From an uncultured Granulosicoccaceae bacterium (GTDB lineage: Bacteria > Pseudomonadota > Gammaproteobacteria > Granulosicoccales > Granulosicoccaceae): DNA of 64,000 nt. Where the stretch lies: assembly GCA_964437945.1 (NCBI GenBank), contig CAYTJF010000001.1, positions 1,658 to 65,657 on the forward strand, written 5' to 3'. The translations under genes and the position numbers were made by a program. The notes beneath the pieces were generated by a model. It saw nothing but the letters and a program-made list of their open reading frames with translations. It made no database searches and had not been told where the DNA came from. How positions within the stretch are numbered: the stretch's first letter is position 1; the number at the start of each line of letters is the position of its first letter. This document shows positions 35,941-56,891 of this stretch, piece after piece.

Positions 35941-35949
35941 ACATGACCA

Positions 35950-39376: not shown

Positions 39377-39935
39377 TACGACCTCGCTCCAAGCTTGAGT
39401 TCAAGGGCGACTGCAACGGAGAGTTCACTGACATAGTCGATGGTGATTTCACCGGTGTTACAAAAGCAGGCTTAAACGCCGGCATCTGTTTGTGGCGTAG
39501 CCAATGCATACTATCGGCGCGATCTGACGCATCATCTGATGTATCATCTAATTCACTAACGTCCGGTACTGCGGCATGACAACCAAAGCAATCAATTTTA
39601 ACCGCAGCATACGCATGACAGCTTGCGCAGAACTGCCCTTCTGCATCCACTCGAACAGGCTCATTGCTGGCGTTTTGTTGTGCATGACAGTCTACGCACT
39701 CAACCAGACTAAACGGTTCATCACGAATGCCACGGATGACCGTTTCGTCGCGCTGATGCACGATCAGGTCCATATGGTTACGACGCATGAAATCGGTATC
39801 AGCAACACAATGGTCGCCTTTACCTTTAGGGATAACTGGGCCAGGATCACCGGCATGACCTGACCAACCCAGACTCAGACCAAGCAATAGCAGCACAGAC
39901 TGAAACAACAGCGGCGATGGCAAAGTAAGCCGCAT
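39348..39935 (-). CDS. dsrJ: DsrJ triheme cytochrome c
   Basis: CV....MRRNHM plus three CxxCH motifs (CVDCH, CASCH, CFGCH). Confidence 0.92.
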   Translation of the reverse strand: MRLTLPSPLLFQSVLLLLGLSLGWSGHAGDPGPVIPKGKGDHCVADTDFMRRNHMDLIVHQRDETVIRGIRDEPFSLVECVDCHAQQNASNEPVRVDAEGQFCASCHAYAAVKIDCFGCHAAVPDVSELDDTSDDASDRADSMHWLRHKQMPAFKPAFVTPVKSPSTMSVNSPLQSPLNSSLERGRNELINSKSE

Positions 39936-39938
39936 TGA

Positions 39939-41900: not shown

Positions 41901-41915
41901 CGCTGTCTCCCAAGT

Positions 41916-43415
41916 TTAAAGTTCAGTGTCCATTACCAGTGCGTCACCAACCAACTGATGCACGCTGATAACCTGGTCCATTTCAAAACCATAATAAGGC
42001 AACACTTTTGAGAACTGACTTTTGCAAATGGCACATATAGCCGCCATATGCGTAATCTGATGTTGTTCATTCACTTCTTTTAAAGCCTGCATGCGTGGCA
42101 AAGCACCTTTGGTGCGTAACTCGATCAAGTCATCGGTCAGCAAACCACCGCCACCACCGCAGCAAAACGTAGCTTCACCGATAGTATCGCTGCGCATATC
42201 AAAGAAATTGTTACACGCCGCTTTGATCACGTTTCTGGGCAACACAAATTGTCCACCAGCCTGACTTCCCATACGCGATGCGCGGGCAACGTTACACGAA
42301 TCATGAAACGTTACGCGTTTATCGTCATTGGCTTCGGGGTCGAGCTTTATACGACCCTGTTCAAGCAAATCATGAGTGACTTCAATAATGTGCTGAGGTA
42401 CCGGATAGTTCGCATCCAGAAAATCAAACGGACCTGCCAGTGTATTGAGAAAACTGTAACCAACTCGCCATGCATGACCACATTCACCAAACACGATGCG
42501 TTTTACACCGAGTTCCAAAGCAGCCTCCCGAATACGCCATGCCATCTTCTGCATGTTGTCGTAACTGCCAATGAACAAACCAAAGTTCGCAGCTTCGGAT
42601 GCATACGATGAAACCGTCCAGCTCAGGCCGGCCTGATGAAACACTTTAGCGTAGCCAATCAAGCCATCGATGTGCGGTTCTGCAAAAAAGTCAGCTGACG
42701 GCGTTACCAACAAGACATCAGCGCCTTTGACATCAAGCGGAAATTTAACCGCCACACCATCGTCCTCCAACACGTCCTCTTCCAGTCCTTCGAGCGTGTG
42801 AGCCAACGCTTTCTCCGGCAGGCCCAGATTGTTACCAATCTTATGTACCTTGCCGATAATCTCGTTACAGTACTTCTGACCCTTCCCAACCGTGTCCATA
42901 ATTTCACGAGCAGCCATGGATACTTCAGCTGTATCGATTCCATAAGGGCAATAGACAGAACACCGACGACATTGCGAACACTGGTGATAATATTTGTACC
43001 ACTCATCGAGTACGTCCTCGGTGAGGTCCTCTGCACCCACTAATTTTGGAAAGTACTTTCCAGGTAAGGTGTAATAACGCCTATAGACTTTGCGTAACAA
43101 ATCTTGCCGCGCAACCGGCATGTTTTTAGGGTCGCCAGTGCCAAGAAAATAATGACACTTGTCGGTACATGCACCGCACTTGACGCACGAATCAAGATAC
43201 ACCTGCAATCCGCGATACTTCCTGGTTAACTCACCCAGTTTCTCAACGGCCACCTCTTGCCAATTGTCGATCAGCTCTCCGGGGAAGCCAATGTCCTGTT
43301 GGTGAGCTTTATTCGCCACATAAGGTTGACTGTGTGCCATGGAATCAGGCATCACTGGCGGCGTGTACACATACTCGCCTAATTCAGCGACTTCAAATTC
43401 AGGCGATTTAGCCAT
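41916..43415 (-). CDS. dsrK: DsrK (HdrD-like)
   Basis: CVKCGACTDKC, CSQCRRCSVYCP, ECGHAWR, HDSC, CCGGGGG and CAIC. Confidence 0.96.
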   Translation of the reverse strand: MAKSPEFEVAELGEYVYTPPVMPDSMAHSQPYVANKAHQQDIGFPGELIDNWQEVAVEKLGELTRKYRGLQVYLDSCVKCGACTDKCHYFLGTGDPKNMPVARQDLLRKVYRRYYTLPGKYFPKLVGAEDLTEDVLDEWYKYYHQCSQCRRCSVYCPYGIDTAEVSMAAREIMDTVGKGQKYCNEIIGKVHKIGNNLGLPEKALAHTLEGLEEDVLEDDGVAVKFPLDVKGADVLLVTPSADFFAEPHIDGLIGYAKVFHQAGLSWTVSSYASEAANFGLFIGSYDNMQKMAWRIREAALELGVKRIVFGECGHAWRVGYSFLNTLAGPFDFLDANYPVPQHIIEVTHDLLEQGRIKLDPEANDDKRVTFHDSCNVARASRMGSQAGGQFVLPRNVIKAACNNFFDMRSDTIGEATFCCGGGGGLLTDDLIELRTKGALPRMQALKEVNEQHQITHMAAICAICKSQFSKVLPYYGFEMDQVISVHQLVGDALVMDTEL

Positions 43416-44163
43416 GAGGTTTCTCCGCCCCCTTGTTATGCTGGGGGGAATCACCGGACTTTGCCCATGCCGCTATGTGCCGCCGCTCCCGCGGATTGTC
43501 AACCTGATTTCGCGAAGGACTAAAGAACAAGCCCGGAGCATGCAGCAATTTGGAAAAGGGAAAAATGAACAACAAAATGGCGACTAACAGTAAATGCAAC
43601 GCCAGCACTGGGTTGAATGCCAGAGAGCCAAATTCGAACGACAACAGATCAAGTGCAAATCGTTTAACTTGAATAATATCGGCATGCAGCCAATAGCGCA
43701 TGGCCAGACCTGAACCCGCAATAGCCATTAAAAATATCAGCATCAAAAAGTCGGACGGCGCAGAAATGTAACGAACCCGGTCTACCAAAAATCGTCGGGC
43801 TAACAAACCTGCCAGACCAAACAGCATCATCATTCCTGCATAAGGACTAAACTGCGACAGCAACACGACCCACCACCAGACTGGTTCAGTGAAATAACGA
43901 AGGTGAGATAACAAAACCAGCAGTAAGCCGAAATGAAACAGCCAACCGAACAGCCATGTCCATTTTGACGCTTTAAAAAGACTTTCAAATAACACCACCT
44001 CTCGACCCAAACGCAGAAACACGCCTGATCGAGTGGTGGGCGCCGGAGTAGTGGGAATTTTCAGCGGTGCGGGTGTGGTTGCGTAACGCAACATTTTACG
44101 CAGGGTGCCGATGACAAAAACAGCCATCGTGAAGTACAAAATTGCGCTAAACACGAATCCCAT
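43408..44163 (-). CDS. dsrM: DsrM (NarI-like cytochrome b)
   Basis: PAPLKIPTTPAP, FH..L..VL..HLRYF and FPFSKLLHAPG.F.SP.RNQ. Confidence 0.95.
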   Translation of the reverse strand: MGFVFSAILYFTMAVFVIGTLRKMLRYATTPAPLKIPTTPAPTTRSGVFLRLGREVVLFESLFKASKWTWLFGWLFHFGLLLVLLSHLRYFTEPVWWWVVLLSQFSPYAGMMMLFGLAGLLARRFLVDRVRYISAPSDFLMLIFLMAIAGSGLAMRYWLHADIIQVKRFALDLLSFEFGSLAFNPVLALHLLLVAILLFIFPFSKLLHAPGLFFSPSRNQVDNPRERRHIAAWAKSGDSPQHNKGAEKPHG

Positions 44164-44199
44164 TGAAACACCCGCTCAGACTATACGCCTCGGATTTGA

Positions 44200-44532
44200 T
44201 CAAACACAACCTGTCGGCTTTGGCAGCCCTGCATATTTACAGGCTTGTTTTGCCGGACCATAAGGATAAAGCTCATACAGGTACTTACTGCTACCCTTAT
44301 CTTTGCCTAGCTTCTTGCCAATCGCCTTGGTTAATACACGAACCGCAGGAGCGATTTGGTATTCCTCGTAGTAGTCACGCAGAAAATTAATCACTTCCCA
44401 GTGGTTATCAGACAGCTCACAATCATCGATCTCAGCCATCGCGTTTGCAACTTCTGGCTCCCACTCGGCCAGGTTTGCCAAATACCCCTCTTCGTCGGTG
44501 TCCAGCGACTTGCCGTTTACTTCTAATGTCAT
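44200..44532 (-). CDS. dsrC: DsrC sulfur carrier
   Basis: DEEGYL, HW.VI.FLR and C-terminal CKYAGLPKPTGCV with both conserved Cys. Confidence 0.97.
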   Translation of the reverse strand: MTLEVNGKSLDTDEEGYLANLAEWEPEVANAMAEIDDCELSDNHWEVINFLRDYYEEYQIAPAVRVLTKAIGKKLGKDKGSSKYLYELYPYGPAKQACKYAGLPKPTGCV

Positions 44533-44558
44533 TTGTTTCTCCTAATTGTAAATCTAGT

Positions 44559-44867
44559 CTAGAGCCAGGAATGTACTCGATCGTGTGTGGCCACCAGTTC
44601 GACGAAACCGTCGTAGTCCACCAGGGTCATTGAATCTAACAAGCCCGCACTGCCAAAACCCCTGGCTTGCAGGTCTGGTTGCAATACGTAAAATTGGGAT
44701 TGTTTGGCTGCGTCAAGCAGTTGATCGGCATAGGCCGTATTCGCCAAAGCAGTGATCGATGCGTCCTCAATAAGCAAAACACTGTCCCCTTCTCCAATGC
44801 GTTTCAAACACTGCTCAAGCGTTCGTTTCTCGAACGGGGACTTATTAACAATATTCAGCGTGCTCAT
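44559..44867 (-). CDS. dsrH: DsrH (TusB-like)
   Basis: NKSPFE, LLIEDA, DL.ARG and VDYDGFV.L. Confidence 0.95.
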   Translation of the reverse strand: MSTLNIVNKSPFEKRTLEQCLKRIGEGDSVLLIEDASITALANTAYADQLLDAAKQSQFYVLQPDLQARGFGSAGLLDSMTLVDYDGFVELVATHDRVHSWL

Positions 44868-44877
44868 GATTAAAAAC

Positions 44878-45264
44878 TCAGAAACTCAAAATGACATCGT
44901 GTTGATCGACCAGCGCTTTTATATCACTACCGGGTATGACTTCAACATCCACCAACAAATCGTCGACGACCAAACCACGCTCTTCAAGCGACTCTTTCTC
45001 AACAAACAATTTTTCAACATCGTACATCTCGAGCGCTCGGTATGTTTTTGAAAAATTCTTGAATTCGATGCCTTCAGGGTCTTGTTCTTTTTTTAGCTGA
45101 TATACACCGTCATCGATAAACAGCACGCTGACATCCTGGTCAAACGCAGCACCAATCAGTACTGTCTCAAGCGATTCGAGTGCGTAGACCGTGCCATGAG
45201 GTAATCGTCTGTTGACGTAAAGAAATTTCTTAATTTCTCCGCCCTGGTACTCTTCATCTTCCAT
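44878..45264 (-). CDS. dsrF: DsrF (TusC-like)
   Basis: PHGT.YALESLE..LI.AAFDQDV..LF.DDGVYQL. Confidence 0.95.
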   Translation of the reverse strand: MEDEEYQGGEIKKFLYVNRRLPHGTVYALESLETVLIGAAFDQDVSVLFIDDGVYQLKKEQDPEGIEFKNFSKTYRALEMYDVEKLFVEKESLEERGLVVDDLLVDVEVIPGSDIKALVDQHDVILSF

Positions 45265-45279
45265 CGCTAATTAGTCTTA

Positions 45280-45307
45280 TTTATCCAGTAACTTTTATCC
45301 AGTAACT
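45280..45307. repeat. Perfect 14-bp tandem duplication between dsrE and dsrF
   Basis: TTTATCCAGTAACT x2. Confidence 0.85.
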
Positions 45308-45334
45308 CAAAAATTATCAGCAACCAAGCTATCA

Positions 45335-45727
45335 TCAATCGCCAAACGTGATCAGCCGATCAGCTTCAACACCAGCTTCTACAAGCTGACCCAAACCCGA
45401 AATACGGAAACCTTCAGCGATATTGGTGGCATCTTTGCCGTTGCGTTTGGCCTCATCTTCATCGACCAGCCCACGTCGCTGACAAGCCGCTACACACAAC
45501 ACAAGATCAACGTTATGATCAGCTGCCAAGGCAGACCAGCGTTTCTGTATGTGCCGATCATCTTGTGGCGGCGTGGTAAGACGTGTGCCATTGTTGACAC
45601 CGTCATGATAAAAAAACACGCGCATCACTTCATGCCCGGCATTTATGGCTGCGTTGACAAATTGGTAAGCAGAATCGGTAGCCTGGTGTTGATAAGGCCC
45701 CTCATTAACCAGTACGGCAAATTTCAT
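45335..45727 (-). CDS. dsrE: DsrE (TusD-like)
   Basis: EGPYQH, FFYHDGV, active-site LCVAA and GFRISGLGQL. Confidence 0.96.
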   Translation of the reverse strand: MKFAVLVNEGPYQHQATDSAYQFVNAAINAGHEVMRVFFYHDGVNNGTRLTTPPQDDRHIQKRWSALAADHNVDLVLCVAACQRRGLVDEDEAKRNGKDATNIAEGFRISGLGQLVEAGVEADRLITFGD

Positions 45728-45736
45728 ACTCGAGCC

Positions 45737-46828
45737 CTAGAACCGGATATGACTGGATGAGTTCAGGCTTTTGCGCGAACCCCGCCAGTTGTCAATATGA
45801 TATTTAGTGAATGGCAGCTCGGTGATCTCGAAGAACCGTGGCCAGCCTATACGATCAATCCAGTCGTTTATTCGCTCCCAGTCTTTTGCATCTTCTTTGT
45901 ACGCAAAAAGAATTTTCTTGACCACCGCGGTGGCTTCTGGCCAGCGCGGTGGGTTGTTCGGAATGCCGGCTGCCACCAGCTTTTGAAACGAAGGCTTGCT
46001 ACGTGCATTGGAATGATTGCCACCAACCCACACAGCCAGTTTGGAATGTTCCGGGTCGTTTATCTGCATTGGCGGACATGGAGGATAACAGGCACCACAA
46101 CAGATACATTTCTTCTCATCGACTTCCAGAGACGGTTTACCGTTAACCATTGCCGGGCGAATAGCTGCGACCGGGCATCGTGCAACGACCGATGGCCGCT
46201 CACACACGTTAGCCACCAGATCATGATTTATCTTCGGGGGCTTGGTGTGTTGTATGTTGATCGCGATGTCGCCTTGTCCACCACAGTTTATCTGGCAACA
46301 GGATGTGGTGATATGAACACGGTTCGGCATTTCCGCGTGGGTGAACTCATGAATTAATTCGTCCATCATTGATTTAACAATGCCCGATGCGTCAGTACCC
46401 GGAATATCGCAATGCAACCAGCCTTGTGTGTGCGAAATCATGGCAACCGAATTTTGGGTGCCACCAACGATAAAGCCAGCATCGCCCAATGCTTTAATTA
46501 GTGGCTCTACCTTTTCTTCCTTATCGACCATGTATTCAATGTTCGAGCGGATAGTAAAACGCACATGACCATCAGCAAATTCATCACCGATGTCACACAG
46601 TTTGCGCAGTGTGTAGACATCAAGTATTCGTTGAGTACCGGCCCTGACCGTCCAGATGGCCTCGCCACTGGCGGAAATATGGCATAGAACACCGGGTTTG
46701 GGATGGGTATGATTAACCCACTGACCAAAATTTCGTAGCATCACCGGGTGCAGATACTGCATGCCATCGGGACAACCACTCTCGATTGCCGGACGCATAA
46801 CCTTCTTGGCAGGTTTAGTAGTCGACAT
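45737..46828 (-). CDS. dsrB: Dissimilatory sulfite reductase beta subunit (oxidative type)
   Basis: HTQGWLHCDIPGTDASG, SCCQINCGG, CERP...ARCP and CICCGACYPPC. Confidence 0.97.
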   Translation of the reverse strand: MSTTKPAKKVMRPAIESGCPDGMQYLHPVMLRNFGQWVNHTHPKPGVLCHISASGEAIWTVRAGTQRILDVYTLRKLCDIGDEFADGHVRFTIRSNIEYMVDKEEKVEPLIKALGDAGFIVGGTQNSVAMISHTQGWLHCDIPGTDASGIVKSMMDELIHEFTHAEMPNRVHITTSCCQINCGGQGDIAINIQHTKPPKINHDLVANVCERPSVVARCPVAAIRPAMVNGKPSLEVDEKKCICCGACYPPCPPMQINDPEHSKLAVWVGGNHSNARSKPSFQKLVAAGIPNNPPRWPEATAVVKKILFAYKEDAKDWERINDWIDRIGWPRFFEITELPFTKYHIDNWRGSRKSLNSSSHIRF

Positions 46829-48190
46829 CTAAACAGCTCCTCCGGCAGCCTGACTTGCTGACTTGTCTACTGCCTTATCCGCTAGCTTGTCAGCCGCATT
46901 GTCGGCACGTCGCTCAAACCACTTGGCCGCTTCTTCATCCCAGCCGTCCATCCGAACATACGAGCTCTCGCGCGGGTGAGCGACCATGTTGGGGTCGACA
47001 TCCACACCAATACCTTCAAGAAAATTGACCAGCCCAATGCGCTCGATCATCTCACCAGTACGTTCGTGCTCCAGTGCATTTTCGGCAAAAAAGTCGATTG
47101 TCTCTTCGGCAATTTCAACAATACGTTCGTAGTCTTCTTCGGTTTCAAGTCGCATAAACGGCACGATGACTGTTCCAAACAAATCACCGATTTTTAATGT
47201 GCGCTTGCCACCAATAAGAATGCTAACGCCTTTGTCGTCACCCGGACTGAACGCCGATGGCACTACATTCAAACAATGCATGCAGCGAACACAGTTACGA
47301 TTATCCACCTCGACCGAATCATCTTCTTTCAATGATAGCGAGTTGGTTGGGCAGCGTGTAATGATGTTATCGATGACATGCTGGCGCCCTTTTATTTCAA
47401 CATACTTTTTAAACGCACCCTGATCAACTTTCATATCGTCGCGCCAGGTGCCGATAACGGCAAAATCTGCACGCTCTATTGAATTCATGCAATCGTTCGG
47501 ACATCCTGAAATCTTGAACTTGAATTTATACGGCAAGGCTGGCCGGTGTATATCATCGGTAAAGTTGTTCACCAGACTGCGATGCACCTTGTGTTCGTTA
47601 GTGCACGACATTTCGCAACGTGATGAGCCTACGCACGACATGGCTGTGCGAACACATGGACCAGCACCACCAAGATCAAAGCCGTATTCGTTTATCTCAT
47701 CGAAAAAGTGTTGTGTGTTTTCGGTGGTAGCACCAATAAACATGATATTGCCAGTTTGGCCATGGAACGTCACCAGACCAGAGCCATGTTTTTCCCAGCT
47801 ATTGGCTAAATCGCGCAGCACATCAGTGGTGTAATGATTACCGGCCGGCGGCTGTACACGCAGGGTGTGAAATTCTCTGGATTCAGGAAACATATCCCCC
47901 ACTTCTGAGAAACGCGGGATGATGCCACCACCATACCCATACACACTAACGGTACCACCCTTCCAATAGCCTTTTCGCGTTTTGTACGAATGTTCAAGCT
48001 GACCGAGCAAATCATTGGCCATACCGTTAACACGATCGCTCGGATGGTCATCGCGCAATCGTTTAATACCCGAAACAAAACTGGGCCATGGTCCAGTTTC
48101 CAGATGATCGAGCATGGGGGTATCGTGGGTTTTTTCGCTCGCTTGCTCGTTCTCTTTTTCGCTCTTTTTGCCGGTCTCTTTGTCTGTCAT
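46829..48190 (-). CDS. dsrA: Dissimilatory sulfite reductase alpha subunit (oxidative type)
   Basis: TPMLD.LE.GPWPSF, WKGG.V.V.GYGGG.I.R, CVG..RCE, KFKFK.SGCPNDC and CVRCMHC. The context with dsrEFH and dsrL indicates reverse Dsr. Confidence 0.97.
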   Translation of the reverse strand: MTDKETGKKSEKENEQASEKTHDTPMLDHLETGPWPSFVSGIKRLRDDHPSDRVNGMANDLLGQLEHSYKTRKGYWKGGTVSVYGYGGGIIPRFSEVGDMFPESREFHTLRVQPPAGNHYTTDVLRDLANSWEKHGSGLVTFHGQTGNIMFIGATTENTQHFFDEINEYGFDLGGAGPCVRTAMSCVGSSRCEMSCTNEHKVHRSLVNNFTDDIHRPALPYKFKFKISGCPNDCMNSIERADFAVIGTWRDDMKVDQGAFKKYVEIKGRQHVIDNIITRCPTNSLSLKEDDSVEVDNRNCVRCMHCLNVVPSAFSPGDDKGVSILIGGKRTLKIGDLFGTVIVPFMRLETEEDYERIVEIAEETIDFFAENALEHERTGEMIERIGLVNFLEGIGVDVDPNMVAHPRESSYVRMDGWDEEAAKWFERRADNAADKLADKAVDKSASQAAGGAV

Positions 48191-48891
48191 TGGTGGTCGC
48201 TCCTAAGCGTCAGACAATTTGTCTATTTCTCTGACCGCCATTGTAGAGCGTCCAGTCACATACGACTATCCGTCTTTGTGAACACGTCGGAGCTTGGAGC
48301 CTATTTCTTAAGGAATAGGTCTGTCCAAAATTAAGGCAAATTCGTGCATAAAAGGAACAGAATCAGGTGCTTGGGGCGCTATTATGAAAATCTTACCATG
48401 GCAGCTTTCCGCGGTTGGACCGGTATGTCAGGCCTTGCCCGAAAAAGCAGCTACTCGCCAGTCAGACCCCATACGGTTAGTTAATTATTTCTGGCCGAAC
48501 AATCCACTCATGCCCAGATTCGCTTGTTTGGGTAAAAACAACCTTTTTGCAAGTTTGATGGTTTTTAGATCCCGTTCAGAGCAGTGCGAACCGGCATATC
48601 ACTGACGCACCCTACATTAAATTGCTTTATTTCTCTACAAAAAACTTTTTCTGATTTGTCTCGTTAAGTCTAAATATCAGCGGCTAGTTTGGTGACGCAC
48701 TGCCAAAAAAGAAAATCAATCAAATTTTCACGTCATTTAGAACTAACAAATAACAAAGGTGATCGCTATGCAGCGTTTACTCAGAAGTGCAAAACGAAAA
48801 GACATTGGTTCTACTTTCACCAGGCTTCTCTTCTGATTCGTCACACCGCACTCAAATACGTTTTTTTAACAAAATTAATTGGACTATTGAT

Positions 48892-50001
48892 ATGAATAAT
48901 CGAACTGTCATGATTGCTGTCGCTACATTTGTACTCGGTGGGGCTTTTGGATATCTATTGCAACCCGGTCAATACCAAACCAATCAGTCTGCAGCGGTTC
49001 AATCGACAACGCTAAGCAACTTGCAGAATAAAGCAACTCACTCAATAGAAAACGATTTAGCGGACGACAAAATCGATACACAAAACCCGAATTCATTTAA
49101 AGCAAATGATGTGTCTAAACTGGGAACAAGCGATTCAGAATTGGCCGTAAATCCAACAGTTTCAAGCAGTGCAGAATTAGTCAAAATTCCCCCACCATTC
49201 AGCACCCAACAATTAATCAACGAACTATCGCTGGTTTCAAATTGGCATGATCTTGAACTGCTGGATATAGAAGATATGGCTGAAAGTGAAACAGATTTTC
49301 TAGAAGCCATTGAGCAATCTCCAGAGTTAGTCAAGCCGTTACTACTTGCCTACCAGAATCTATCCGAAGACGGCGCTAAAGACCTACTTCGCTCGATGCT
49401 AGCAGCAAGCGGCGCACTCGAGGTGGAACAGCATGCACTTTCAGCACTCTCTACCAGTGACCTCGATTCAAAAACTCAGTGGCTTTATTTACTAGCAAGC
49501 ACGGGGGTTAATTCGCCAGATTCTCGCGAAACTCTACTCTCGGCAATGGACGGTATGTCAGAGCCCGAGCATTTAAAAGTATCGCTACACGCCTTCTCCC
49601 CGGATATCGTCTCAGCGGAAGAACAGTTCGACATCGCCAATCGACTCGAAGTTTATACAAACCATTCCGATGAAAATGTGCGCGGAGCCGGTGTGGAAGC
49701 ATTGAGCAAATGGACTGATAAAGGCAACAGTCATTTTATAGAAACTGCGCTTAACGACGAATCTGAAATCGTTCGACGGTCGGCAGTGTTCTCTTCATTC
49801 ACTGCTGGCATTCAGTCAGAGTCCATTAAAAATCAGCTTTTTCGCATGCTTGACGACGAATCACAGCCTTATGACTTACGACTCGACATCTTCAACACGC
49901 TTTCAACTTACCAGTTGCAAGGCGAAGAGCGTCAAAAATTCTTTCGTTTCAATGAGGAAGTAGAAGCCATGAACAGAGGTAGTGGAAACGCGAAAGGATA
50001 A
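48892..50001 (+). CDS. Membrane-anchored HEAT-repeat protein
   Basis: N-terminal TM helix, low-complexity linker and HEAT-like repeats (HSDENVRGAGVEALS, ALNDESEIVRRSAV). Confidence 0.75.
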   Translation: MNNRTVMIAVATFVLGGAFGYLLQPGQYQTNQSAAVQSTTLSNLQNKATHSIENDLADDKIDTQNPNSFKANDVSKLGTSDSELAVNPTVSSSAELVKIPPPFSTQQLINELSLVSNWHDLELLDIEDMAESETDFLEAIEQSPELVKPLLLAYQNLSEDGAKDLLRSMLAASGALEVEQHALSALSTSDLDSKTQWLYLLASTGVNSPDSRETLLSAMDGMSEPEHLKVSLHAFSPDIVSAEEQFDIANRLEVYTNHSDENVRGAGVEALSKWTDKGNSHFIETALNDESEIVRRSAVFSSFTAGIQSESIKNQLFRMLDDESQPYDLRLDIFNTLSTYQLQGEERQKFFRFNEEVEAMNRGSGNAKG

Positions 50002-50037
50002 ACCCTACTCAACGTAACTTTATTACAGGAGTCAATT

Positions 50038-51198
50038 ATGAAAAATAAATTTTATCTAATCAATTTAACCATGCTGCTAATGGCCTGTTTATTCGTCAAT
50101 ACTGCTCAGGCTGTGCTTAGCAATGTCACCGACTACAATGCACAAGTTACCGCAAGCTCACTAAATGTTAGAAGTGGACCCGGTACCGGTTATCGTATTA
50201 TCGGCTCGGTCCGTAATAATGACACCGTCAGGGTGACTCATCACGATGGCAATTGGCGAAAAATAAACTGGCAAAATGGTGCAAACGCGTACGTCCATGG
50301 CTCATACGTTAAGAAATTAGACACACCGCCATCTTCTGCGGATACTAATGTTACCGATTACGACGGTGTTGTAACTGCGGACACACTAAACGTAAGAAGC
50401 GGGCCCTCCACAGCAAATGGAATAATTGGTAAACGCTATCGAAATCAAAAAGTCAGGGTAACCCATCACTCCGGTGTGTGGCGCAAGATTGCATGGTCGG
50501 GCGGAAGTTCGGCTTACGTACATGGGTCTTATGTTAATAAAATAATTAATACCCCGACCCGCAAATCGAGACAGTTCAACATAACCGTGAAATCATACTT
50601 AGCTAACATTGGAAGCAACAGAGGTAGTTTCGGCAAACTCGCAGTTATGGACAATACTGAACTTTTCGCACTTGCAAAGTTAACTGATGGATTATTTTCG
50701 GAGTTGCCAAATAATGATAGGAAAGATGATTTGAATGGAGACTACCGGCTCTATACAAACCTAAGGGTGAATGCAACGTGTACAAATAATAACTTGAGCG
50801 TTTCCCATACTCTAAGCTCAGATGCAGGAAGGGAACCATTTCCTACCTGGAGTGTTGGGTCAATAAAACCATCTGCATTAATTGGACAGTTTGTACAGAA
50901 CAAAGACAACGCAAGCACATGGTCTTTTCGCTATTACATGAAAGGAAAACCAGATATAAAACTTGAACCCAATTTTCAGTTAGTCAGGTTTAGAGCCAAC
51001 CCTTACATATGGCATAAAATTGGCGGGAAGATACTGTGTAAGAATAACAATCCAACGTGGATTATGAACGAGTTCGCTGGTTCTAAATTTCCATCACATC
51101 GCTATTGGGTGGATGGAACACAATACTCCACTCACACGCAAGGAGATTTTGTAGGGCTTTGGAGCCTTACCAAACCGACGCTTGATCACTTAAATTAA
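50038..51198 (+). CDS. Secreted protein with two bacterial SH3 (SH3b) domains and an unassigned C-terminal domain
   Basis: Signal peptide, then NVTDY...VTA..LNVRSGP.T...IIG....N..VRVTHH.G.WRKI.W.....AYVHGSYV twice. An AGGAG RBS is present. Confidence 0.88.
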   Translation: MKNKFYLINLTMLLMACLFVNTAQAVLSNVTDYNAQVTASSLNVRSGPGTGYRIIGSVRNNDTVRVTHHDGNWRKINWQNGANAYVHGSYVKKLDTPPSSADTNVTDYDGVVTADTLNVRSGPSTANGIIGKRYRNQKVRVTHHSGVWRKIAWSGGSSAYVHGSYVNKIINTPTRKSRQFNITVKSYLANIGSNRGSFGKLAVMDNTELFALAKLTDGLFSELPNNDRKDDLNGDYRLYTNLRVNATCTNNNLSVSHTLSSDAGREPFPTWSVGSIKPSALIGQFVQNKDNASTWSFRYYMKGKPDIKLEPNFQLVRFRANPYIWHKIGGKILCKNNNPTWIMNEFAGSKFPSHRYWVDGTQYSTHTQGDFVGLWSLTKPTLDHLN

Positions 51199-51225
51199 GA
51201 AAACGTCTTTTACGTTTTATTGCAT

Positions 51226-51270
51226 AGTCATCCTTCGAATCTATTGTGTTAGTTCGAAGGATGACTTTTT
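51226..51270 (+). terminator. Intrinsic terminator after the SH3b gene
   Basis: 14-bp perfect stem AGTCATCCTTCGAA / TTCGAAGGATGACT followed by TTTT. Confidence 0.8.
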
Positions 51271-51320
51271 AGTACTGGCAATTACTCGAAAACACCACTC
51301 TCGAATGGCTAAAGCCGGTA

Positions 51321-52595
51321 TCAACCAAAAATATCTTTTGTTATACCATCGTACCAACCTATTGATTCTTCATAGGTGGTTTTGCGCAGAGCGGCATCTT
51401 CGCCAGTTTCGCTGATGAATTTCGAAGTGGCGGCAATTTTGCCTTCCTCAACCGCGTATTGCGCACCTACTTTTACACCGTCATCGGTGCCGATCAAACT
51501 CCAGCACGTATTGCTGAATTTTGCCGGAAACACCTTGGCACCCAGCAGATCACCACGCACATTCAAGGCTGCGACCTTAGCCTGGCTGTTGGCCGAGAAA
51601 CCTGATTTAGGCATAGCACCTGCGATACTGGCATCACCGAGCACGTAGATATTTTCATCCATCGTCGACCGCATTGAATCTGCAACGATTGGACAAAAGC
51701 CGGAGTCGTCGGTTAAGCCGCCTTCGACCGCAATAGCGCCGGCCTGTTGACCGGGAATGATGTTGAGTAACGCACCTTCGAACGTATCAAGATCGGTTTC
51801 GACCGTACCTGCTTCGACGTCTACACCGACCACACCACCGTGCACATCAGCCCCGTACCACTCGATCATATCGGGATAATGATTTTGCCAACCCTCTTGA
51901 AACAGGCCTTGTTTGGAAAATTTCTCTTTTGGATCGATGACAAAAATTTTACTGTCAGTTAATCCACGCGTTTTTAACACATGCGCCATCATCGATACAC
52001 GCTCGTATGGCCCTGGTGGACACCGATATGGATTAGGCGGCGGAACCATAACAATGTTCTGGCCATTTTCTAGCGCATCCAGTTTACTTTTCAACAAGGA
52101 CGTTTGGGCACCTGCTTGCCAGGCATGCGGAGCAACTTCTGCAGCTTCTTGCGAATAACCTGGCACGCTATCGAATTTAAGATCGATACCAGGAGCAACA
52201 ATCAAGCTGTCGTAGGCGACCGATGAACCATCAGCCATGGCAACTGATTTTTTGGCAGTGTCTATTCCTTGAGCGTAGCCAATGACCACATTGATGCCGT
52301 AGTCGGCATTTAACTTTTCGTACGAATGGGTAATCGATTCGAATGAACGGAAATCACCAAGATACAAGTTGGAGAAAAAGCAGGTAGTGTATTTGTCTTC
52401 CGCAGAAATCAAGGTAACGTCCACTTTTCCTTCACTGTCTTTGGCAAGATAGCGAGCCGCAGTGGCGCCAGCTGCACCTCCGCCAATAACGACCACGCTC
52501 GGCTTTGCCTGAGCACGGATGCCGGCTGGAACGGCTATGCTGGCAACTCCAGCACCCAGCAATGTACTGAATTGTCTTCTGGTTATTTTACTCAA
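51321..52595 (-). CDS. fccB: Flavocytochrome c sulfide dehydrogenase flavoprotein subunit (FccB/SoxF)
   Basis: Tat RRQF, GGGAAG, FAD-attachment CFFSN, PYRCPPGPYER, MPKSGFSANSQ and NTCWS. Confidence 0.93.
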   Translation of the reverse strand: MSKITRRQFSTLLGAGVASIAVPAGIRAQAKPSVVVIGGGAAGATAARYLAKDSEGKVDVTLISAEDKYTTCFFSNLYLGDFRSFESITHSYEKLNADYGINVVIGYAQGIDTAKKSVAMADGSSVAYDSLIVAPGIDLKFDSVPGYSQEAAEVAPHAWQAGAQTSLLKSKLDALENGQNIVMVPPPNPYRCPPGPYERVSMMAHVLKTRGLTDSKIFVIDPKEKFSKQGLFQEGWQNHYPDMIEWYGADVHGGVVGVDVEAGTVETDLDTFEGALLNIIPGQQAGAIAVEGGLTDDSGFCPIVADSMRSTMDENIYVLGDASIAGAMPKSGFSANSQAKVAALNVRGDLLGAKVFPAKFSNTCWSLIGTDDGVKVGAQYAVEEGKIAATSKFISETGEDAALRKTTYEESIGWYDGITKDIFG

Positions 52596-53071
52596 GCGAT
52601 ACTCCCCTCTTGTATTTAATAATATTGATCGGTTTTTTGTCCCATAACGCCAGTTATGCGAGATTTAAGTCATTTGATACAACGTTAATCAATTACAACG
52701 TTAATGCAAGTTGACTCATTTAACGCCTCGATTTTTCCATTCGGGCGTTCTACCTTTGGGTTTTACTTCTCTATAAAACCACAGGTCAAATTCAAAAACA
52801 ACCGCTGGTTCTCAGACAGCATTGGCTGAGCATTGTACTATTCGCTGATGTACTGCGTAGCTTGCCTGACAGTGCATCGCGTATTATGTCTTCGATTACG
52901 TTTTCACTGGTTCCTTACTATCTTTTTTCGTACTCCCACACTATGTCGAATATATCTCCAAATGAATATTCCAAATGATATACGATCAATACAATAACGA
53001 ATCAGCGATGATTCGCCGACCAATACCCAAACCCATTGGCTACCAAACTACTTAGTTGCTACGTTTAACAA

Positions 53072-54058
53072 ATGGAAAACAAACGCTCTTCAATCGTTCG
53101 CGCAACAATGAACCCCAGTGGCAGGCAATTCGAGGTACTACCTGGTCAGAGCTTGCTTGAAGCCGGGCTCAGCGCAGGTATTGCATTACCATTTGGCTGT
53201 GCCAATGGTAGTTGCGGTGATTGCCGGGCGCGCCTGATTAACGGACAGGTAAAGAAAACACGAAGCCATGATTTTGTATTAACCGAAGCGCAGAAACTCG
53301 ATGGGTGTTGCCTGCTGTGTTCAACAACGGCGATTACCAATGTACAAATCGATGTGCTAATTGCCGCAACAGTCAACGATATTCCGCAACAGCAGTTGCA
53401 AGCAAAACTTTGCCGTGTGGAACAAAGGCACGAAGTCAGCATTATCGCGTTCAAATTTATAAGAGGCAAAGCCTTGCGTTTTCTTCCTGGCCAACGAGTC
53501 CATTTAACCTCGAAGTGTGGCAGTACAGTGGAGTTGCCCATTGCCAGCTGCCCCTGTAACGCACAGTACGTCGAGTTCCACTTAACTGCCGAAACAGCAC
53601 ATCTGACAGAACTTAGCCGCTTTAGCGAAAAAGAGCTAACGTCGACTGCTGAACGCGAGCGCGTCAGTATCAGCGGACCGATTGGAAACTTCACGCTGAG
53701 TAACGATATACGTAAGCCCAAGCTGTTTATCACCAAAGGAAGTGAATTTGGTCAAATACAGGGCATGATCGAGCAAGTGCTGAACGATGAATCGGATGTG
53801 CCCTGCTGTCTGATATGGAAAGCCTCAGACAAGGTGGTTATCTATAGATCGAATCTGTGTCGATCATGGAAGGATGCGTTCGATCAATTCGATTTTATCC
53901 CGTTGTCGAGCAACGCAGATATGCTCAGTGCCATACCCAAACACTGGCAGACCCACCTTGGAGACTGCGAGGTGTACTTTGGAAAAAAAGATTCGATTCT
54001 TTCACAGCGGCTTACCAAACTTGGTGTCAGCCCGGCTTCCATGTTCTATGCGGACTGA
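53072..54058 (+). CDS. 2Fe-2S ferredoxin / FNR-like oxidoreductase with divergent flavin and NAD motifs
   Basis: GCANGSCGDC...LLC 2Fe-2S motif, F.PGQ, IASCPC and GP.GNF. Confidence 0.8.
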   Translation: MENKRSSIVRATMNPSGRQFEVLPGQSLLEAGLSAGIALPFGCANGSCGDCRARLINGQVKKTRSHDFVLTEAQKLDGCCLLCSTTAITNVQIDVLIAATVNDIPQQQLQAKLCRVEQRHEVSIIAFKFIRGKALRFLPGQRVHLTSKCGSTVELPIASCPCNAQYVEFHLTAETAHLTELSRFSEKELTSTAERERVSISGPIGNFTLSNDIRKPKLFITKGSEFGQIQGMIEQVLNDESDVPCCLIWKASDKVVIYRSNLCRSWKDAFDQFDFIPLSSNADMLSAIPKHWQTHLGDCEVYFGKKDSILSQRLTKLGVSPASMFYAD

Positions 54059-54272
54059 CAATGCATCGGGTAATAACACAACGGTGCAACACACCATAGC
54101 TTTTACAATTTGGTTGATAGCAACGCAAGATGCAGCGCAACCTATATCAAAAGAGATAGACAATCGACGCATTTGCCAACGCAACACCAATAAAACAAGC
54201 GGATGCTTTGCCCAATGACGCAAAGCAACCTATGATGAACACTCTAACCCTACATGAGCCCGGCTTTTTAGC

Positions 54273-55253
54273 ATGTCTGCACCAACTACAGTGACATCTA
54301 CGTTAGAGCTGATTAACTCACGTCTGTTCAATGGCGACCAGTCGAAGCAGGACGCGTGGATAGAGCAAGCCCAGGCAAATGCTGAACGGAATGCCGAATC
54401 GATAGGGTTGGAATCATTACAACTACCACCCAACCCTTCGCAAAACCGCGACTACGCCTCTATGAAGCAACTGTGCGCAAAGGTAGCAAACACCGGATTT
54501 GCACTTTATGAATGGGACGATGAGCCAAGCGATATTGCTACTTCAGTATCTCAACTGCTGCACGCATTGTCGCTTCGCAACGGAGATCAGGGCGTAATAC
54601 GCGAAACGGGCCAGTTGTCATTGCTGCAGGATTTAACCGGCACACCAAAAGGGCGTTTTCCACCTTATCAGGCAAAAGCGATGAATTGGCACACTGATGG
54701 TTACTATAACGATCCCGCTGAATCAGTTCGCTGTTTTACACTGCATTGCATAGCACCAGCGGCTAGTGGGGGCGCGTTATTGCTGATGGATGATGTGTCT
54801 CTGGTTTATGCGCTACTGAAGGAAGACCCTGAGCTGGTGTTACTACTCTCGCATCCAAATGCCATGACATTGCCACATAACAAGGACAACGACGGACACG
54901 ACAGACCTGATCGATGCGTGCCTGTTATTTCGCAAAATGCAGATGAATCGATAACCATGCGCTTCACAACCAGAACCCAAAACATACAGTGGCGGTGCGA
55001 TGCAACACAAGCTGCCGCACAACGAGCCAGCGAACTGATCAATGAACGCTCGCAATGGCACACTCGCATCAGACTCGAACAAGGTCAGGGCATTATTACG
55101 CGCAACGTATTACATGCAAGAGAAGCCTTCGAGGATGCAACTGATAAACCGAAAAGGCAAATGCTGCGCGGACGATTTACGAATCTGCCATCGCCAGCCA
55201 CACTAACCGAATCGGCACACACTTCTGCGAAGCAAAACCATGTTGCACCTTAG
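54273..55253 (+). CDS. TauD/TfdA-family Fe(II)/2-oxoglutarate dioxygenase-like protein
   Basis: WHTDGYYN (HxD), LHC..PA..GG and NVLHAR (distal His, Arg). Confidence 0.85.
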   Translation: MSAPTTVTSTLELINSRLFNGDQSKQDAWIEQAQANAERNAESIGLESLQLPPNPSQNRDYASMKQLCAKVANTGFALYEWDDEPSDIATSVSQLLHALSLRNGDQGVIRETGQLSLLQDLTGTPKGRFPPYQAKAMNWHTDGYYNDPAESVRCFTLHCIAPAASGGALLLMDDVSLVYALLKEDPELVLLLSHPNAMTLPHNKDNDGHDRPDRCVPVISQNADESITMRFTTRTQNIQWRCDATQAAAQRASELINERSQWHTRIRLEQGQGIITRNVLHAREAFEDATDKPKRQMLRGRFTNLPSPATLTESAHTSAKQNHVAP

Positions 55254-55434
55254 TGATATATTGTTACAGCACAAGGACATTACTACCTTTGCCGAACTCA
55301 TTAAAGTCGTGGAACAACGCGCCAAAAATGAAATGTTTTTTCGTATCGATCTAAAACCACCCTTCCCCGATACACCGCTGAATTGGGAACTGGTGCTTGA
55401 GGCTGCATTCAGCGGAGTGCCCAAAGATGACTGA
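55240..55434 (+). CDS. Small hypothetical protein (64 aa, no Cys)
   Basis: Overlaps both neighbours, as in an operon. Pattern ML.LS.IL......F.EL...V......F.ID.KP.FPDTP.NWE..LEAAF. Confidence 0.75.
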   Translation: MLHLSDILLQHKDITTFAELIKVVEQRAKNEMFFRIDLKPPFPDTPLNWELVLEAAFSGVPKDD

Positions 55435-56167
55435 CCCGGGCACAGAGGGTTTGAGTCTAAGCGATGAAGAAAAACGCTTGCTGGATAAAACACCCGATGC
55501 TGATCGGGAAACGCGATTACAGGCACTACTGGACGCGTTCGAACAAGTGCCAGAAATATCCTCAGATACACAAATTTCTGAACAAAAAAAAGAACAGTCC
55601 TTACAACATGCACGCACCGCACTGGAAATTGCCGGCCTGTTGTTAGACCTTGATAGAAAAGCTGACGCATGGAAATACGCCCGACCAGCAGTAGAAGATC
55701 TGATTGCCCATCAAGCGTTTGAAGACGCAGCGCTGGCTTGTCAATATACCTATCTGGCCGATCAGGACGACGCTATTGCGGCGATTGGCCAGGGAGCATG
55801 GTTGTCAGTAACATACCCTGTAGACCCTCATTTAACCGCTAACATACTCACCCATATAATAGATGAAACACCCGATGACTCTGATGGCGGAGCGGTGGCA
55901 GCCGCCGTGGCACATTATGTGGTCGATTTGCGAGGCGAAGGCGAAAAGAAAGAGGAGCTGAGACTGTTTACTGGAGCCAATCTGGCACGCGTAGCGAAGC
56001 GACACAGCAACGTTGAATCGCAAATGCAATTCGAACTGTGGGTGGAACGGCTGGAGCTTGACGTGCCAGAGAAATTTCTGGTTCGGCTGAGAAACGTTAT
56101 TGACGTAATGGTGCAAACTGATTGGTGGTTCGACCGCGACGCGTTAACTTCAAACATTCCAGACTGA
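55427..56167 (+). CDS. Hypothetical alpha-helical (TPR-like) protein
   Basis: GGAG RBS before the ATG at 55427. Acidic helical sequence with WL..TYPVDP and IIDETPDDSDGGAVAA, ending WWFDRD.L. Confidence 0.8.
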   Translation: MTDPGTEGLSLSDEEKRLLDKTPDADRETRLQALLDAFEQVPEISSDTQISEQKKEQSLQHARTALEIAGLLLDLDRKADAWKYARPAVEDLIAHQAFEDAALACQYTYLADQDDAIAAIGQGAWLSVTYPVDPHLTANILTHIIDETPDDSDGGAVAAAVAHYVVDLRGEGEKKEELRLFTGANLARVAKRHSNVESQMQFELWVERLELDVPEKFLVRLRNVIDVMVQTDWWFDRDALTSNIPD

Positions 56168-56210
56168 GTTTTTTTATACAGGACATTGATCAAAGGATAT
56201 TCGACCGGCA

Positions 56211-56891
56211 ATGTGGCAGGAGACGAATCAAGACGATCCACCATCGGGTGCGCGCATGAGCGATGTCAGTTTTCGCATCAACTGCCAACGCTTACTGGTT
56301 GACCATGCAGCATTACTAGCTGACGCTACCTGCACACACGCACCGATTATAAGAGAATCAATGTGTGCTGGTATCCATCCAATTCATGTTGCCGGTTCAC
56401 AAAACGGATGGGAGCGCCCGGATAACAGTGGCGAGTATCTACTACTGTCTAAGCGCACACGATTTAAAATTCGTATCGAAAATACCTACGCACAACAATT
56501 AATCACCACCCTGTCTGGAATTACATTGGACATTGCGGATTCACCGCTGCATATTCTGTCCGGAATATCGCGCGTTTTACAACCGGCCTCAACGCTGTTC
56601 TCCCGTTACACTTATTTTGAAGATCTGAATACAAACGACGCAGAGTCGCTATTTGTAGAGCGAGTCGTTGAACAATGCAAACAACATCATTTTTCTCCAA
56701 CGAAAATTCTTTGTGGCAAAGAGCACACAATAAACACCACAGACGGCCCTAGACTGACTCGCAGTGTCTTATTGGCCGATGTACCCGTTATTGAATCACT
56801 AACATTGCAAGACTATGGTCTGGGTGATGGCAGAACAATGGGTTGCGGTTTATTGATTCCGCATAAAGATACTAGTGCTGTTCATGAGTAG
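56211..56891 (+). CDS. cas6: Stand-alone Cas6 (type I-MYXAN Cas6/Cmx6-like RAMP protein)
   Basis: D..F.I....L.VDH, GIHPIH, LSKRTR and the C-terminal G-rich loop GLGDGRTMGCGLLIPHK. Confidence 0.85.
   Translation: MWQETNQDDPPSGARMSDVSFRINCQRLLVDHAALLADATCTHAPIIRESMCAGIHPIHVAGSQNGWERPDNSGEYLLLSKRTRFKIRIENTYAQQLITTLSGITLDIADSPLHILSGISRVLQPASTLFSRYTYFEDLNTNDAESLFVERVVEQCKQHHFSPTKILCGKEHTINTTDGPRLTRSVLLADVPVIESLTLQDYGLGDGRTMGCGLLIPHKDTSAVHE

Follow-up and report, generated by a model that had tools for sequence, protein, structure and literature searches.

The window analysed here, the whole 64-kb stretch of DNA from an uncultured Granulosicoccaceae bacterium, carries a reverse Dsr (rDsr) operon on the minus strand and a five-gene module on the plus strand, whose last gene encodes a Cas6-fold protein. 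The features of the locus are as follows.

35578..48190, minus strand: dsrABEFHCMKLJOPNR operon (NCBIfam; synteny in relatives)
48300..48319: copy of a palindromic box, 110 bp before dsrA (13.3 bits, rank 9 of 44 matches)
48787..52595: genes for a HEAT-repeat protein and an SH3 protein, and fccB, dividing dsrA from the module (ORFs; Pfam)
52951..52970: weak copy of the box, 121 bp before the reductase gene (10.1 bits, rank 28 of 44)
53072..54058, plus strand: 2Fe-2S/flavin reductase, 328 aa, Fer2 plus a divergent FAD/NAD reductase (PF00111)
54141..54160: palindromic box, 132 bp before dsrQ (rank 3 of 44; same site in relative G303)
54273..55253, plus strand: dsrQ, TauD-like Fe(II)/2-oxoglutarate oxygenase, 326 aa (PF02668; triad H140-x-D142...H281)
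55240..55434, plus strand: 64-aa cysteine-free protein with the motif D(V/L)KPPxPDTPxxWE (no family match)
55427..56167, plus strand: all-helical TPR-like protein of no named family, 246 aa from ATG (model; structural matches)
56211..56891, plus strand: Dsr-associated Cas6-fold protein, Cmx6/I-MYXAN-related, 226 aa (PF09559; structure model; residue conservation)

The ORF check placed the five plus-strand genes at 53072-56891, and the co-orientation, the two overlaps and the 43-bp gap before cas6 described in an earlier note on this DNA were all borne out. The dsrQ gene overlaps the 64-aa gene by 14 bp, the 64-aa gene overlaps the TPR-like gene by 8 bp, the gap of 43 bp separates the TPR-like gene from cas6, and 214 bp lie between the reductase gene and dsrQ. 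The module does lie between fccB and soeABC as the note had stated, but cas6 is not directly before soeC, since three unrelated plus-strand genes (57255-59588) and a gene fragment intervene. Synteny of related loci revealed a conserved gene set consisting of dsrQ, the 64-aa protein, the TPR-like protein, Cas6 and usually a cysteine-less DsrC, with the module usually standing head-to-head with dsrA; similar sets near the dsr clusters of other sulfur oxidisers, mentioned in the note, were found in many of them. In the present genome, about 6 kb of other genes are inserted between dsrA and the module, and the cysteine-less DsrC is absent. The same position holds fccB and the reductase gene in G338 and the reductase gene only in G303 and G334, and in all three the reductase gene immediately precedes dsrQ. 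The reductase was found inside the module in 4 of 84 loci, in this sub-lineage only, and occurs in 13 of the 61 family genomes, all 13 of which are dsrA-positive. The usual facing arrangement of module and dsrA and the usual terminal cysteine-less DsrC had been overlooked in the earlier note.

The name dsrQ is that of a tauD-like gene divergent from dsrA, as given in a passage of PMC7596348 citing Lenk et al. (2012). The oxygenase gene studied here is the same gene by family and by its position in relatives; it is divergent from dsrA but 6 kb off, while adjacent to it in most relatives. That passage names the oxygenase alone and leaves the small, TPR-like, Cas6 and cysteine-less DsrC genes unmentioned. 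The iron triad H140, D142 and H281 was near-invariant in 45 sequences. The gene is present in 56 of 84 loci, and in the loci compared cas6 follows dsrA more closely than dsrQ does; the 64-aa gene was found in 69 of 79 loci and the TPR-like gene in 75 of 79. Comparison of the 64-aa protein with that of G303 gave pN 0.12 and pS 0.83. A database label calls this protein 'sulfur relay protein DsrC', which was rejected as it has no Pfam or NCBIfam DsrC match and no Cys. The TPR-like protein had no match in Pfam, NCBIfam or PADLOC; its model (pLDDT 91) is all helix, and its best structural matches were TPR solenoids (Z 12.3, rmsd 3.2, 164 aligned), a score within the chance range for helical proteins. 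Foldseek gave no match for it at E 0.001, with TPR matches in the atlas at 0.82 only.

The Cas6 assignment passed the profile check with Pfam PF09559 (E 1e-45, 156 bits, above the cut-off of 26.7), of which this protein is the single match in the genome. Against TIGR02807, the type I-MYXAN Cas6/Cmx6 equivalog, it scored 77.1 bits, under the curated cut-off of 98.85. The predicted structure (pLDDT 88) shows a two-domain RAMP fold, and the top Foldseek matches of the model were all Cas6 proteins, with the type I-B CAST Cas6 8fcu_B at E 5e-17, TM 0.74 and rmsd 3.1; the RAMP fold expected in the earlier note is supported by this modelled match. The G-rich loop that had been read from the sequence was confirmed as GLGDGRTMGCG at residues 203-213, including Arg208, and the pattern G-h-G-x5-G-h-G was kept in 126 of 137 homologues, 107 of which had the basic residue. 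The C-terminal Gly loop was defined here as in the relevant part of PMC3727216, where the Cas6 active site is placed between helix 1 and this loop. In the model, helix 1 begins at residue 33, next to His32, which was found in 80/80 and 74/75 sequences and also in 4/4 full-length CRISPR-type relatives. A candidate catalytic His at helix 1 is common in the Cas6 family, though not universal; the solved relative 8fcj_B has Asn in place of it, and because of this the His is not proven to be catalytic in this family. A family-specific loop, AGSQNGWERPD (residues 61-71), is invariant, with low model confidence at residues 63-67. Cas6 evolves under purifying selection. Fusion searches gave no fusion of Cas6 to a Dsr protein, which is weak evidence, and no homologue was found in the viral contigs searched.

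The earlier note had described an orphan Cas6 with no other cas gene or array in the window, and this was upheld: no CRISPR array was present in the 64 kb. The genome-wide search, which covered 5.8 Mb in 395 contigs and 93% completeness (an incomplete assembly cannot prove absence), agreed with this. Profile searches of the whole genome detected no cas1, no cas7 (four families) and no type III RAMP, and for cas3 gave only six sub-cut-off helicase matches. A simple repeat-spacer scan of the genome returned 10 candidates; nine were tandem repeats with near-identical 'spacers', and the tenth, located at the end of a contig, had three copies and 42-bp spacers with a similarity of 0.5. A type I-MYXAN CRISPR-Cas system (defined by cas3, cas8, cas7, cas5, cas1, cas2 and an array) was found neither in the locus nor in the genome, and no cas homologue or array appeared in 154 related loci (1.5 Mb), in a survey whose array finder recovered two of three positive controls.

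The co-occurrence check linked Cas6 with rDsr and not with CRISPR. Among 61 family genomes, dsrA was present in 18 of the 19 cas6-positive ones, cas6 in 18 of the 19 dsrA-positive ones, and neither gene in 41; cas1 was carried by 5/19 cas6-positive genomes vs 6/42 others. In a class sample of 400 Gammaproteobacteria genomes, cas6 was found in 120 of 125 with dsrA, and dsrA in 120 of 124 with cas6. Genome G738 carries cas6 and the small gene but no dsrA. Even two 1.1-Mb genomes retain cas6. In Dsr-bearing genomes of two other classes, Cas6 was found in 0/38 and 0/261. Throughout the class, Cas6 accompanies the reverse Dsr genes independently of CRISPR. The near one-to-one association with Dsr and the lack of a CRISPR system together indicate that an immune-system protein was likely taken into core energy metabolism, and domestication of a CRISPR-family Cas6, free of CRISPR and tied to Dsr, is in our view almost certain.

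We compared the Dsr-type proteins with Cas6/Cmx6 of types I-MYXAN and I-B (8fcj/8fcu chain B). They share the RAMP fold at ~23% identity, the helix-1 D-H motif (also in four CRISPR-type relatives) and a Gly loop with a basic residue. Dsr-type members, however, have no cas operon or array, are tied to dsrA, score below the TIGR02807 cut-off and are net acidic, with a median net charge of -5 vs +5 to +9 in the four CRISPR-type relatives. Their Gly loop has the RR/KR pair cut to one Arg, and the CRISPR-type basic set is lost: positions 137, 154, 167, 171, 177 and 207, each basic in three or four of the four CRISPR-type relatives, are so in at most 11% of 75 Dsr-type members, a comparison that rests on four comparators whose basic residues are presumed to form the hairpin-binding surface. 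Conversely, ten aligned positions are basic in >90% of the 75 Dsr-type members (K/R81, R82, R84, R88, K/R121, R132, K165, R184, K219 and R69), and the invariant NGW-x-R loop and an N-terminal Trp are both missing from CRISPR-type proteins. In a quick, unrooted tree, the Dsr-type Cas6 formed a branch apart from the CRISPR-type with an SH-aLRT of 99; because the tree is unrooted, the direction from CRISPR to Dsr rests on parsimony.

The palindromic box has the consensus CTATCCC-N4-GGGATAG, which was derived from dsrA promoters, and its matrix, trained on other families, gave 44 matches >9 bits in this genome. Of 63 leaders, 59 carry the box in the interval that separates dsrA from the module. 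Near dsrA, no box >9 bits was found in the cas6 carriers G509, G647, G304, G312 and G367, among others. We considered the box as an RNA hairpin, and this was rejected: G-U-compatible changes were equal on both strands (13 vs 11), and 3 compensatory changes stood against 30 plain mismatches, of which the outer pair accounted for 25. The strand balance and the few compensatory changes therefore led us to read the box as DNA, and on sequence grounds it is likely an operator.

The long dsr mRNA, which the earlier note had offered as a possible Cas6 target, did not hold up as far as its hairpins are concerned. Hairpins conserved in position but variable in sequence were seen at dsrA-dsrB and dsrC-dsrM in many loci (every second locus, by eye). 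However, in 21 of the 84 loci (one or two of them start-calling artefacts) dsrA and dsrB are <=15 nt apart, which leaves the hairpin no room; this family and the two 1.1-Mb genomes that retain cas6 are among these loci. The dsr spacers of this window fold weakly, and spacer hairpins were rejected as a universal target since they are absent in this family and in other lineages that keep cas6. No Rfam match was obtained at 43-61 kb. A degenerate MYXAN repeat was likewise rejected, as matches to a 20-nt repeat part were not above shuffles and the hairpin core gave 9 matches vs ~14 expected. A synonymous-site scan of 12 genes other than dsrKLJOPNR, sox, soe and sRNAs gave no codon window clearly above chance (best z 4.3), and a promoter/terminator consensus scan gave no excess over shuffles. 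An RNA-level role for Cas6 is possible, and the proposal of a domesticated Cas6 acting on sulfur-oxidation transcripts survives in part: the orphan state, the RAMP fold and the fixed link to rDsr stand, and the dsr mRNA hairpins as its target do not.

Expression values are available for Allochromatium vinosum, in which Alvin_1248 is the Cas6-annotated gene beside dsrA. According to Table S2 of PMC11267869, whose values are a recalculation of the Weissgerber 2013 data, Alvin_1248 and the neighbouring genes 1249 and 1250 were up 12.5-, 6.3- and 17.7-fold on elemental sulfur vs sulfide, and dsrA-dsrP were down 3- to 11-fold. Such opposite shifts are as would be seen with a negative regulator. On pyrite, the same source reports dsrAB down >20-fold with Alvin_1248-1250 unchanged, which counts against an RNA-level reading. 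It also lists glutathione reductase and a redoxin as induced alongside the module on elemental sulfur. In the portions of the literature covered by our search, Alvin_1248 appears with its annotation and expression values only, and no function is given.

We tentatively favour, at somewhat less than even confidence, a Cas6 retuned as a ribonuclease or RNA-binding protein for a short single-stranded site, controlling the turnover of sulfur-oxidation transcripts. His32 and the Gly loop would still make up an acid-base site of the kind that other Cas6 proteins have, and the new basic set would line the cleft between the sheets and grip a short polyanion, presumably RNA. The site would be short and single-stranded and not a repeat-like hairpin, as the loss of the basic residues common to CRISPR-type relatives was counted against hairpin recognition. 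The 64-aa protein, the most constant neighbour of Cas6, may be its partner. Cas6 shares a promoter box with dsrA. Against RNA-level action, the searches described above gave no RNA target, the protein is net acidic, an invariant pocket with no conserved RNA to go with it suits a fixed small ligand just as well, and the TPR-like protein, the DsrC paralogue and the oxygenase as neighbours suggest protein-level work. A close second, with perhaps one chance in three, is that the Cas6 fold now works at the protein level, in the maturation or repair of DsrAB/DsrC. At a similarly limited level of belief, the basic pocket and the His might bind a fixed polyanion, for instance a siroheme-type cofactor or a protein tail; no more confidently, the TPR-like protein might act as an adaptor, joined by the 64-aa protein and by a cysteine-less DsrC that serves as a decoy, chiefly during sulfur or oxygen stress. 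This would suit a net acidic protein that nevertheless keeps an invariant basic set and loop, the retention of cas6 in 1.1-Mb genomes that lost the promoter box and the spacer hairpins, and the induction in A. vinosum with glutathione reductase and redoxin. Distant TPR-like homologues in 37 genomes of another class, with both copies in G050 following dsrABL, and the dsrQ and small genes that lead into siroheme synthase in one genome of a third class point the same way, the siroheme synthase link being one locus. The Dsr-bearing genomes of two other classes without Cas6, however, make Cas6 dispensable for DsrAB assembly in general, and the retained Cas6-type His and Gly loop and the lack of a Cas6-Dsr fusion also speak against it.

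It is improbable that Cas6 is a small-molecule enzyme in a side pathway shared with the DsrQ oxygenase and the 2Fe-2S reductase, where its His/Gly-loop site would act on a metabolite of the phosphodiester or phosphosulfate kind. The invariant polar and basic residues are typical of a fixed-substrate enzyme, the dsrQ iron triad is intact, and some genomes have the module down to dsrQ, the small gene and cas6; but 28 of the 84 loci lack dsrQ, the third class has it in the absence of cas6, and we know of no metabolite chemistry for a RAMP protein. That Cas6 is part of a transcriptional regulator reading the palindromic box would agree with the place of the box in most leaders and with its copies before both dsrA and the module after their separation here, but several cas6 carriers have no such box near dsrA and the model contains no DNA-binding domain, which makes it very unlikely. 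Least credible of all is that Cas6 acts in trans, processing the arrays of a CRISPR system encoded elsewhere in the genome. Homology to Cmx6 and the CRISPR systems of some carriers would allow it, but no cas genes or array were found here, Cas6 follows dsrA and not cas1, and its branch in the tree is separate. G614 and G730 carry a CRISPR-type Cmx6 with the Dsr-type Cas6 as a separate gene, and the trans reading is contradicted by G304 (one contig, 100% complete), which has cas6 and dsrA without cas1.

Taken together, we consider it probable that a CRISPR Cas6 was captured by an ancestor of the sulfur-oxidising Gammaproteobacteria and turned into a guide-free protein devoted to reverse Dsr metabolism. 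It would be either an RNase that cuts sulfur-oxidation transcripts at specific sites or a factor that handles a cofactor or protein by means of a new pocket; its usefulness would be such that even 1.1-Mb genomes have kept it, and an undescribed palindromic operator, which would define a sulfur-oxidation regulon, would place it under common control with dsrA. If true, a Cas protein has become a fixed part of core energy metabolism throughout a bacterial class, which sets it apart from the CRISPR exaptations described so far. Gammaproteobacterial rDsr, a pathway of major importance in the marine sulfur cycle and in animal symbionts, would also gain uncharacterised near-universal genes and a candidate operator. 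Dsr-type Cas6 proteins are systematically mislabelled as CRISPR-associated, and since A. vinosum is genetically tractable and has a Cas6-annotated gene beside dsrA, the question is directly testable. The TIGR02807 comment is said to mention an orphan member in Thiobacillus denitrificans. A Cas6-Dsr link was not described in the literature searched; Lenk 2012, Weissgerber 2013, a 2011 review of dsr regulation and supplements lay outside the search and may mention the genes. The main text of the CRISPR review PMC8730458, as far as covered, does not contain the word 'sulfur'. The exapted CRISPR parts treated in the covered sections of that review (the Myxococcus dev operon, CASTs, type IV and STAND-linked I-E) resemble the Dsr-type Cas6 in having a job other than adaptive immunity. 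Those systems, however, still work with multi-subunit effectors or with guide RNAs, and their roles remain those of defence, transposition or development, whereas the Dsr-type Cas6 is a lone Cas protein in an energy-metabolism cluster.

The earlier note had described five co-oriented genes ending in cas6, and its gene set, overlaps (14 and 8 bp), 43-bp gap and Gly loop were all confirmed. Family profile searches assigned the five products, in order, to Fer2 reductase, TauD, no family, no family and Cas6 (PF09559), the last match bearing out the Cas6 assignment. The features concerned are as follows.

35578-48190, - strand, dsrABEFHCMKLJOPNR (family profiles, window)
53072-54058, + strand, reductase
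54273-55253, + strand, dsrQ (TauD-like oxygenase)
55240-55434, + strand, small gene (64-aa Cys-free protein)
55427-56167, + strand, TPR-like gene (all-helical 246-aa protein)
56211-56891, + strand, cas6
59697-64000, running on past the window (contig C1 61354-73670), soeABC and a truncated flavoprotein gene, duplicated in tandem (6164 bp, 99.87% identity)

The reductase carries LPIASCPC in place of the flavin motif of related reductases, which we take to be RxY(S/T), and SCPC is kept in three congeners. Two + strand blocks, probably encoding exported proteins, break up the sulfur cluster (48787-51198 and 57255-59588); the three genes of the latter gave no Pfam match. A NarX/NarL-like two-component pair (33017-35565) directly follows dsrR, and the same order was seen at one homologue locus (L072), there running into dsrQ, the small gene and cas6. 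A 69-aa ORF at 59836-60045 was judged by eye to be a putative transposase fragment, and the tandem duplication could be either genuine or introduced by the assembly.

The orphan status of cas6 was checked genome-wide in the 93% complete assembly (395 contigs; closest named relatives, Granulosicoccaceae) and it stood: there was this single PF09559 gene, no cas1, cas7, type III RAMP or above-cut-off cas3 was found, and the repeat-spacer scan gave no convincing array. The orphan Cas6 is real, and very probably a case of Cas exaptation.

Gammaproteobacteria accounted for all 79 homologue loci in the species-genome collection. Of these, 75 had the TPR-like gene, 69 the small gene, 64 dsrA, 44 dsrQ and 2 the reductase, many misses being contig ends, and a second, same-strand DsrC was found in 68/79. 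In a set of 84 loci for which 3.8 kb or more of upstream sequence was available (some genomes entered twice), the small gene was found in 77, the TPR-like gene in 71, dsrQ in 56 and the reductase in 4, and dsrA in 77. The earlier note's remark that similar gene sets lie near the dsr clusters of other sulfur oxidisers is supported. The commonest order was dsrA, divergent from dsrQ, small gene, TPR-like gene, cas6 and a DsrC paralogue. In the window's genome 6 kb lie between dsrA and dsrQ, and the reductase occupies the dsrA-dsrQ gap of three congeners; the five-gene order is therefore the shape that a core of four to five genes takes in this sub-lineage. In three loci of one family (L147, L148 and L149, from G063, G623 and G738), the module is scattered and cas6 lies divergent beside rnc (RNase III)-era.

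Linkage of cas6 to reverse Dsr (rDsr) rather than to CRISPR was borne out in an even sample of Gammaproteobacteria: among 400 genomes scored, a strong Cas6 match (E below 1e-40) was found in 124, dsrA in 125 and both in 120, a pattern covering about 90 genera, in which kin are not independent. Left out of this count were two genomes with weak CRISPR-type matches only (one being G615), and G562 was unscored. Six of the nine exceptions were contig breaks adjoining the module or dsrA, two genomes (G554 and G733) had dsrA in another setting, and G738 had cas6 and the small gene with no dsrA match. The window's family (61 genomes) gave 19 with cas6, 19 with dsrA, 18 with both and 41 with neither, and two 1.1-Mb genomes have kept dsrQ, the small gene, cas6 and the DsrC paralogue all beside dsrA. 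Domestication of Cas6 for rDsr is well supported, and we have very little doubt of it.

The cas6-dsrA link is limited to one class. In a second class (37 genomes picked by TPR-like profile match, plus one), cas6 was found in 0/38 genomes, though dsrA was present in 35; in a third, cas6 was found in 0/261 and dsrA in 5, with dsrQ flanking dsrA in 4/5 and the small gene likewise. Gene content suggests that these are Magnetococcia and Alphaproteobacteria. Both TPR-like copies of one second-class genome (G050) directly follow dsrABL (L094 7761-8429, L095 7690-8400). Thus, with Dsr-bearing genomes of two other classes holding module genes and no cas6, Cas6 was added in Gammaproteobacteria to an accessory set that is older. 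Distant TPR-like homologues in 37 second-class genomes were mostly stand-alone (L080-L099). In one third-class genome dsrQ and the small gene lead into DUF6967 and siroheme synthase, and DUF6967 follows dsrQ in a second genome too (L186 5618-8420, L187 11141-11407).

The palindrome CTATCCC-N4-GGGATAG was found in 59/63 dsrA leaders, with strand-symmetric substitutions as for a DNA operator, and a further, FNR-like box in 34/63. A palindrome matrix built from 52 sites of other families (cut-off 9 bits) gave 44 matches in the 5.8 Mb genome, among them three copies 110-132 bp upstream of dsrA (rank 9), the reductase (28) and dsrQ (3), where the genome scan gives by arithmetic a chance expectation of about 0.006 in three 250-bp stretches; the same sites occur in genome G303. 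With the box before dsrA and before the module in the split locus, both halves have therefore kept it. The top genome-wide copy (C169:5215) lies some 700 bp upstream of a YeeE-like gene in a putative sox cluster, both names being read from translations, and another (C1:74036, outside the window) precedes Sel1-repeat/Rieske genes, which follow cas6 in congeners; these two copies suggest a sulfur-oxidation regulon. Other elements of the dsrA leaders (loci L005-L079) were the conserved GGTGGAGT and ATATTAGC (37/63 each), and AGTCAGGAGA at the ribosome-binding site (31/63).

In Allochromatium vinosum, according to the elemental-sulfur column of Table S2 (second-hand data) of PMC11267869, transcripts of Alvin_1248 (annotated as Cas6-related) and Alvin_1249-1250 are 6- to 18-fold higher on elemental sulfur than on sulfide while dsr genes fall; on pyrite, the same source has the three genes flat and dsrAB down over 20-fold. 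By gene order, Alvin_1249-1250 would correspond to the TPR-like gene and the small gene. The module is thus transcribed and responds to sulfur, yet out of step with dsrAB.

Cas6 distances correlated with DsrA distances (Spearman 0.59) about as well as DsrM does (0.63), and cas6 versus a congener gave pN 0.22 and pS 0.82 (saturated). The RAMP fold was upheld by the predicted structure (pLDDT 88), which matched Cas6 structures, best a type I-B CAST subunit (TM 0.74). The Cas6 active site, as PMC3727216 describes it, lies between helix 1 and the Gly loop, with varying catalytic residues; Dsr-type Cas6 proteins, by which we mean the orphans beside rDsr genes, retain this loop as well as His32, which stands where helix 1 starts.

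Rfam, repeat-like element, spacer-hairpin and synonymous-site searches found no RNA target. Cutting of dsr-message hairpins did not hold up: of the forms that the RNA idea can take it is the weakest, as the window's family and the smallest genomes lack such hairpins. We tentatively prefer that Cas6 may be an RNase, or a protein that binds RNA, retuned to a short single-stranded site, because this departs least from what the ancestral protein did and agrees both with retention of the His and Gly loop and with expression opposite to dsr on sulfur. A close second, and a real though lesser possibility, would be maturation or repair of DsrAB/DsrC. A DsrC paralogue ending GGY (RKGGY) directly follows cas6 in 100/139 loci, with Cys within its last 15 residues in only 1/103, and is absent from the window's genome.

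A small-molecule enzyme seems improbable to us, and a DNA-level regulator very unlikely; in a number of cas6 carriers no box exceeds 9 bits, so the box is not why cas6 is kept. CRISPR processing in trans is hardly credible: cas1 was found in 5/19 cas6 carriers of the window's family versus 6/42 other genomes, and 154 loci, searched with 20 ORFs of three CRISPR operons, gave neither a homologue nor a CRISPR array.

The name dsrQ is in print (PMC7596348). A term search in PMC3368242, PMC10892978, PMC10952691, PMC5573963 and PMC5294841 found no description of a Cas6-Dsr link, nor did the literature searched, key subscription papers lying outside its reach; the portion consulted of a CRISPR-exaptation review (PMC8730458) gives no sulfur case.

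For comparison with known systems, four full-length CRISPR-type Cmx6 proteins (I-MYXAN) were taken from cas operons. In a quick tree, 41 Dsr-type proteins separated from 4 CRISPR-type ones (SH-aLRT 99). Dsr-type proteins are acidic (median net charge -5), whereas the four Cmx6 range from +5 to +9, and basic residues of the latter at 137, 154, 167, 171, 177 and 207 have been lost. Their own near-invariant basic set (69, 81, 82, 84, 88, 121, 132, 165, 184, 219), whose invariant residues would cluster in space, shares only 84 and 88 with all four Cmx6, and the W and R of an invariant NGW-x-R loop, of low confidence in the model, have no counterpart there. We read Dsr-type Cas6 as a retained catalytic corner with a binding surface rebuilt relative to CRISPR-type Cmx6.
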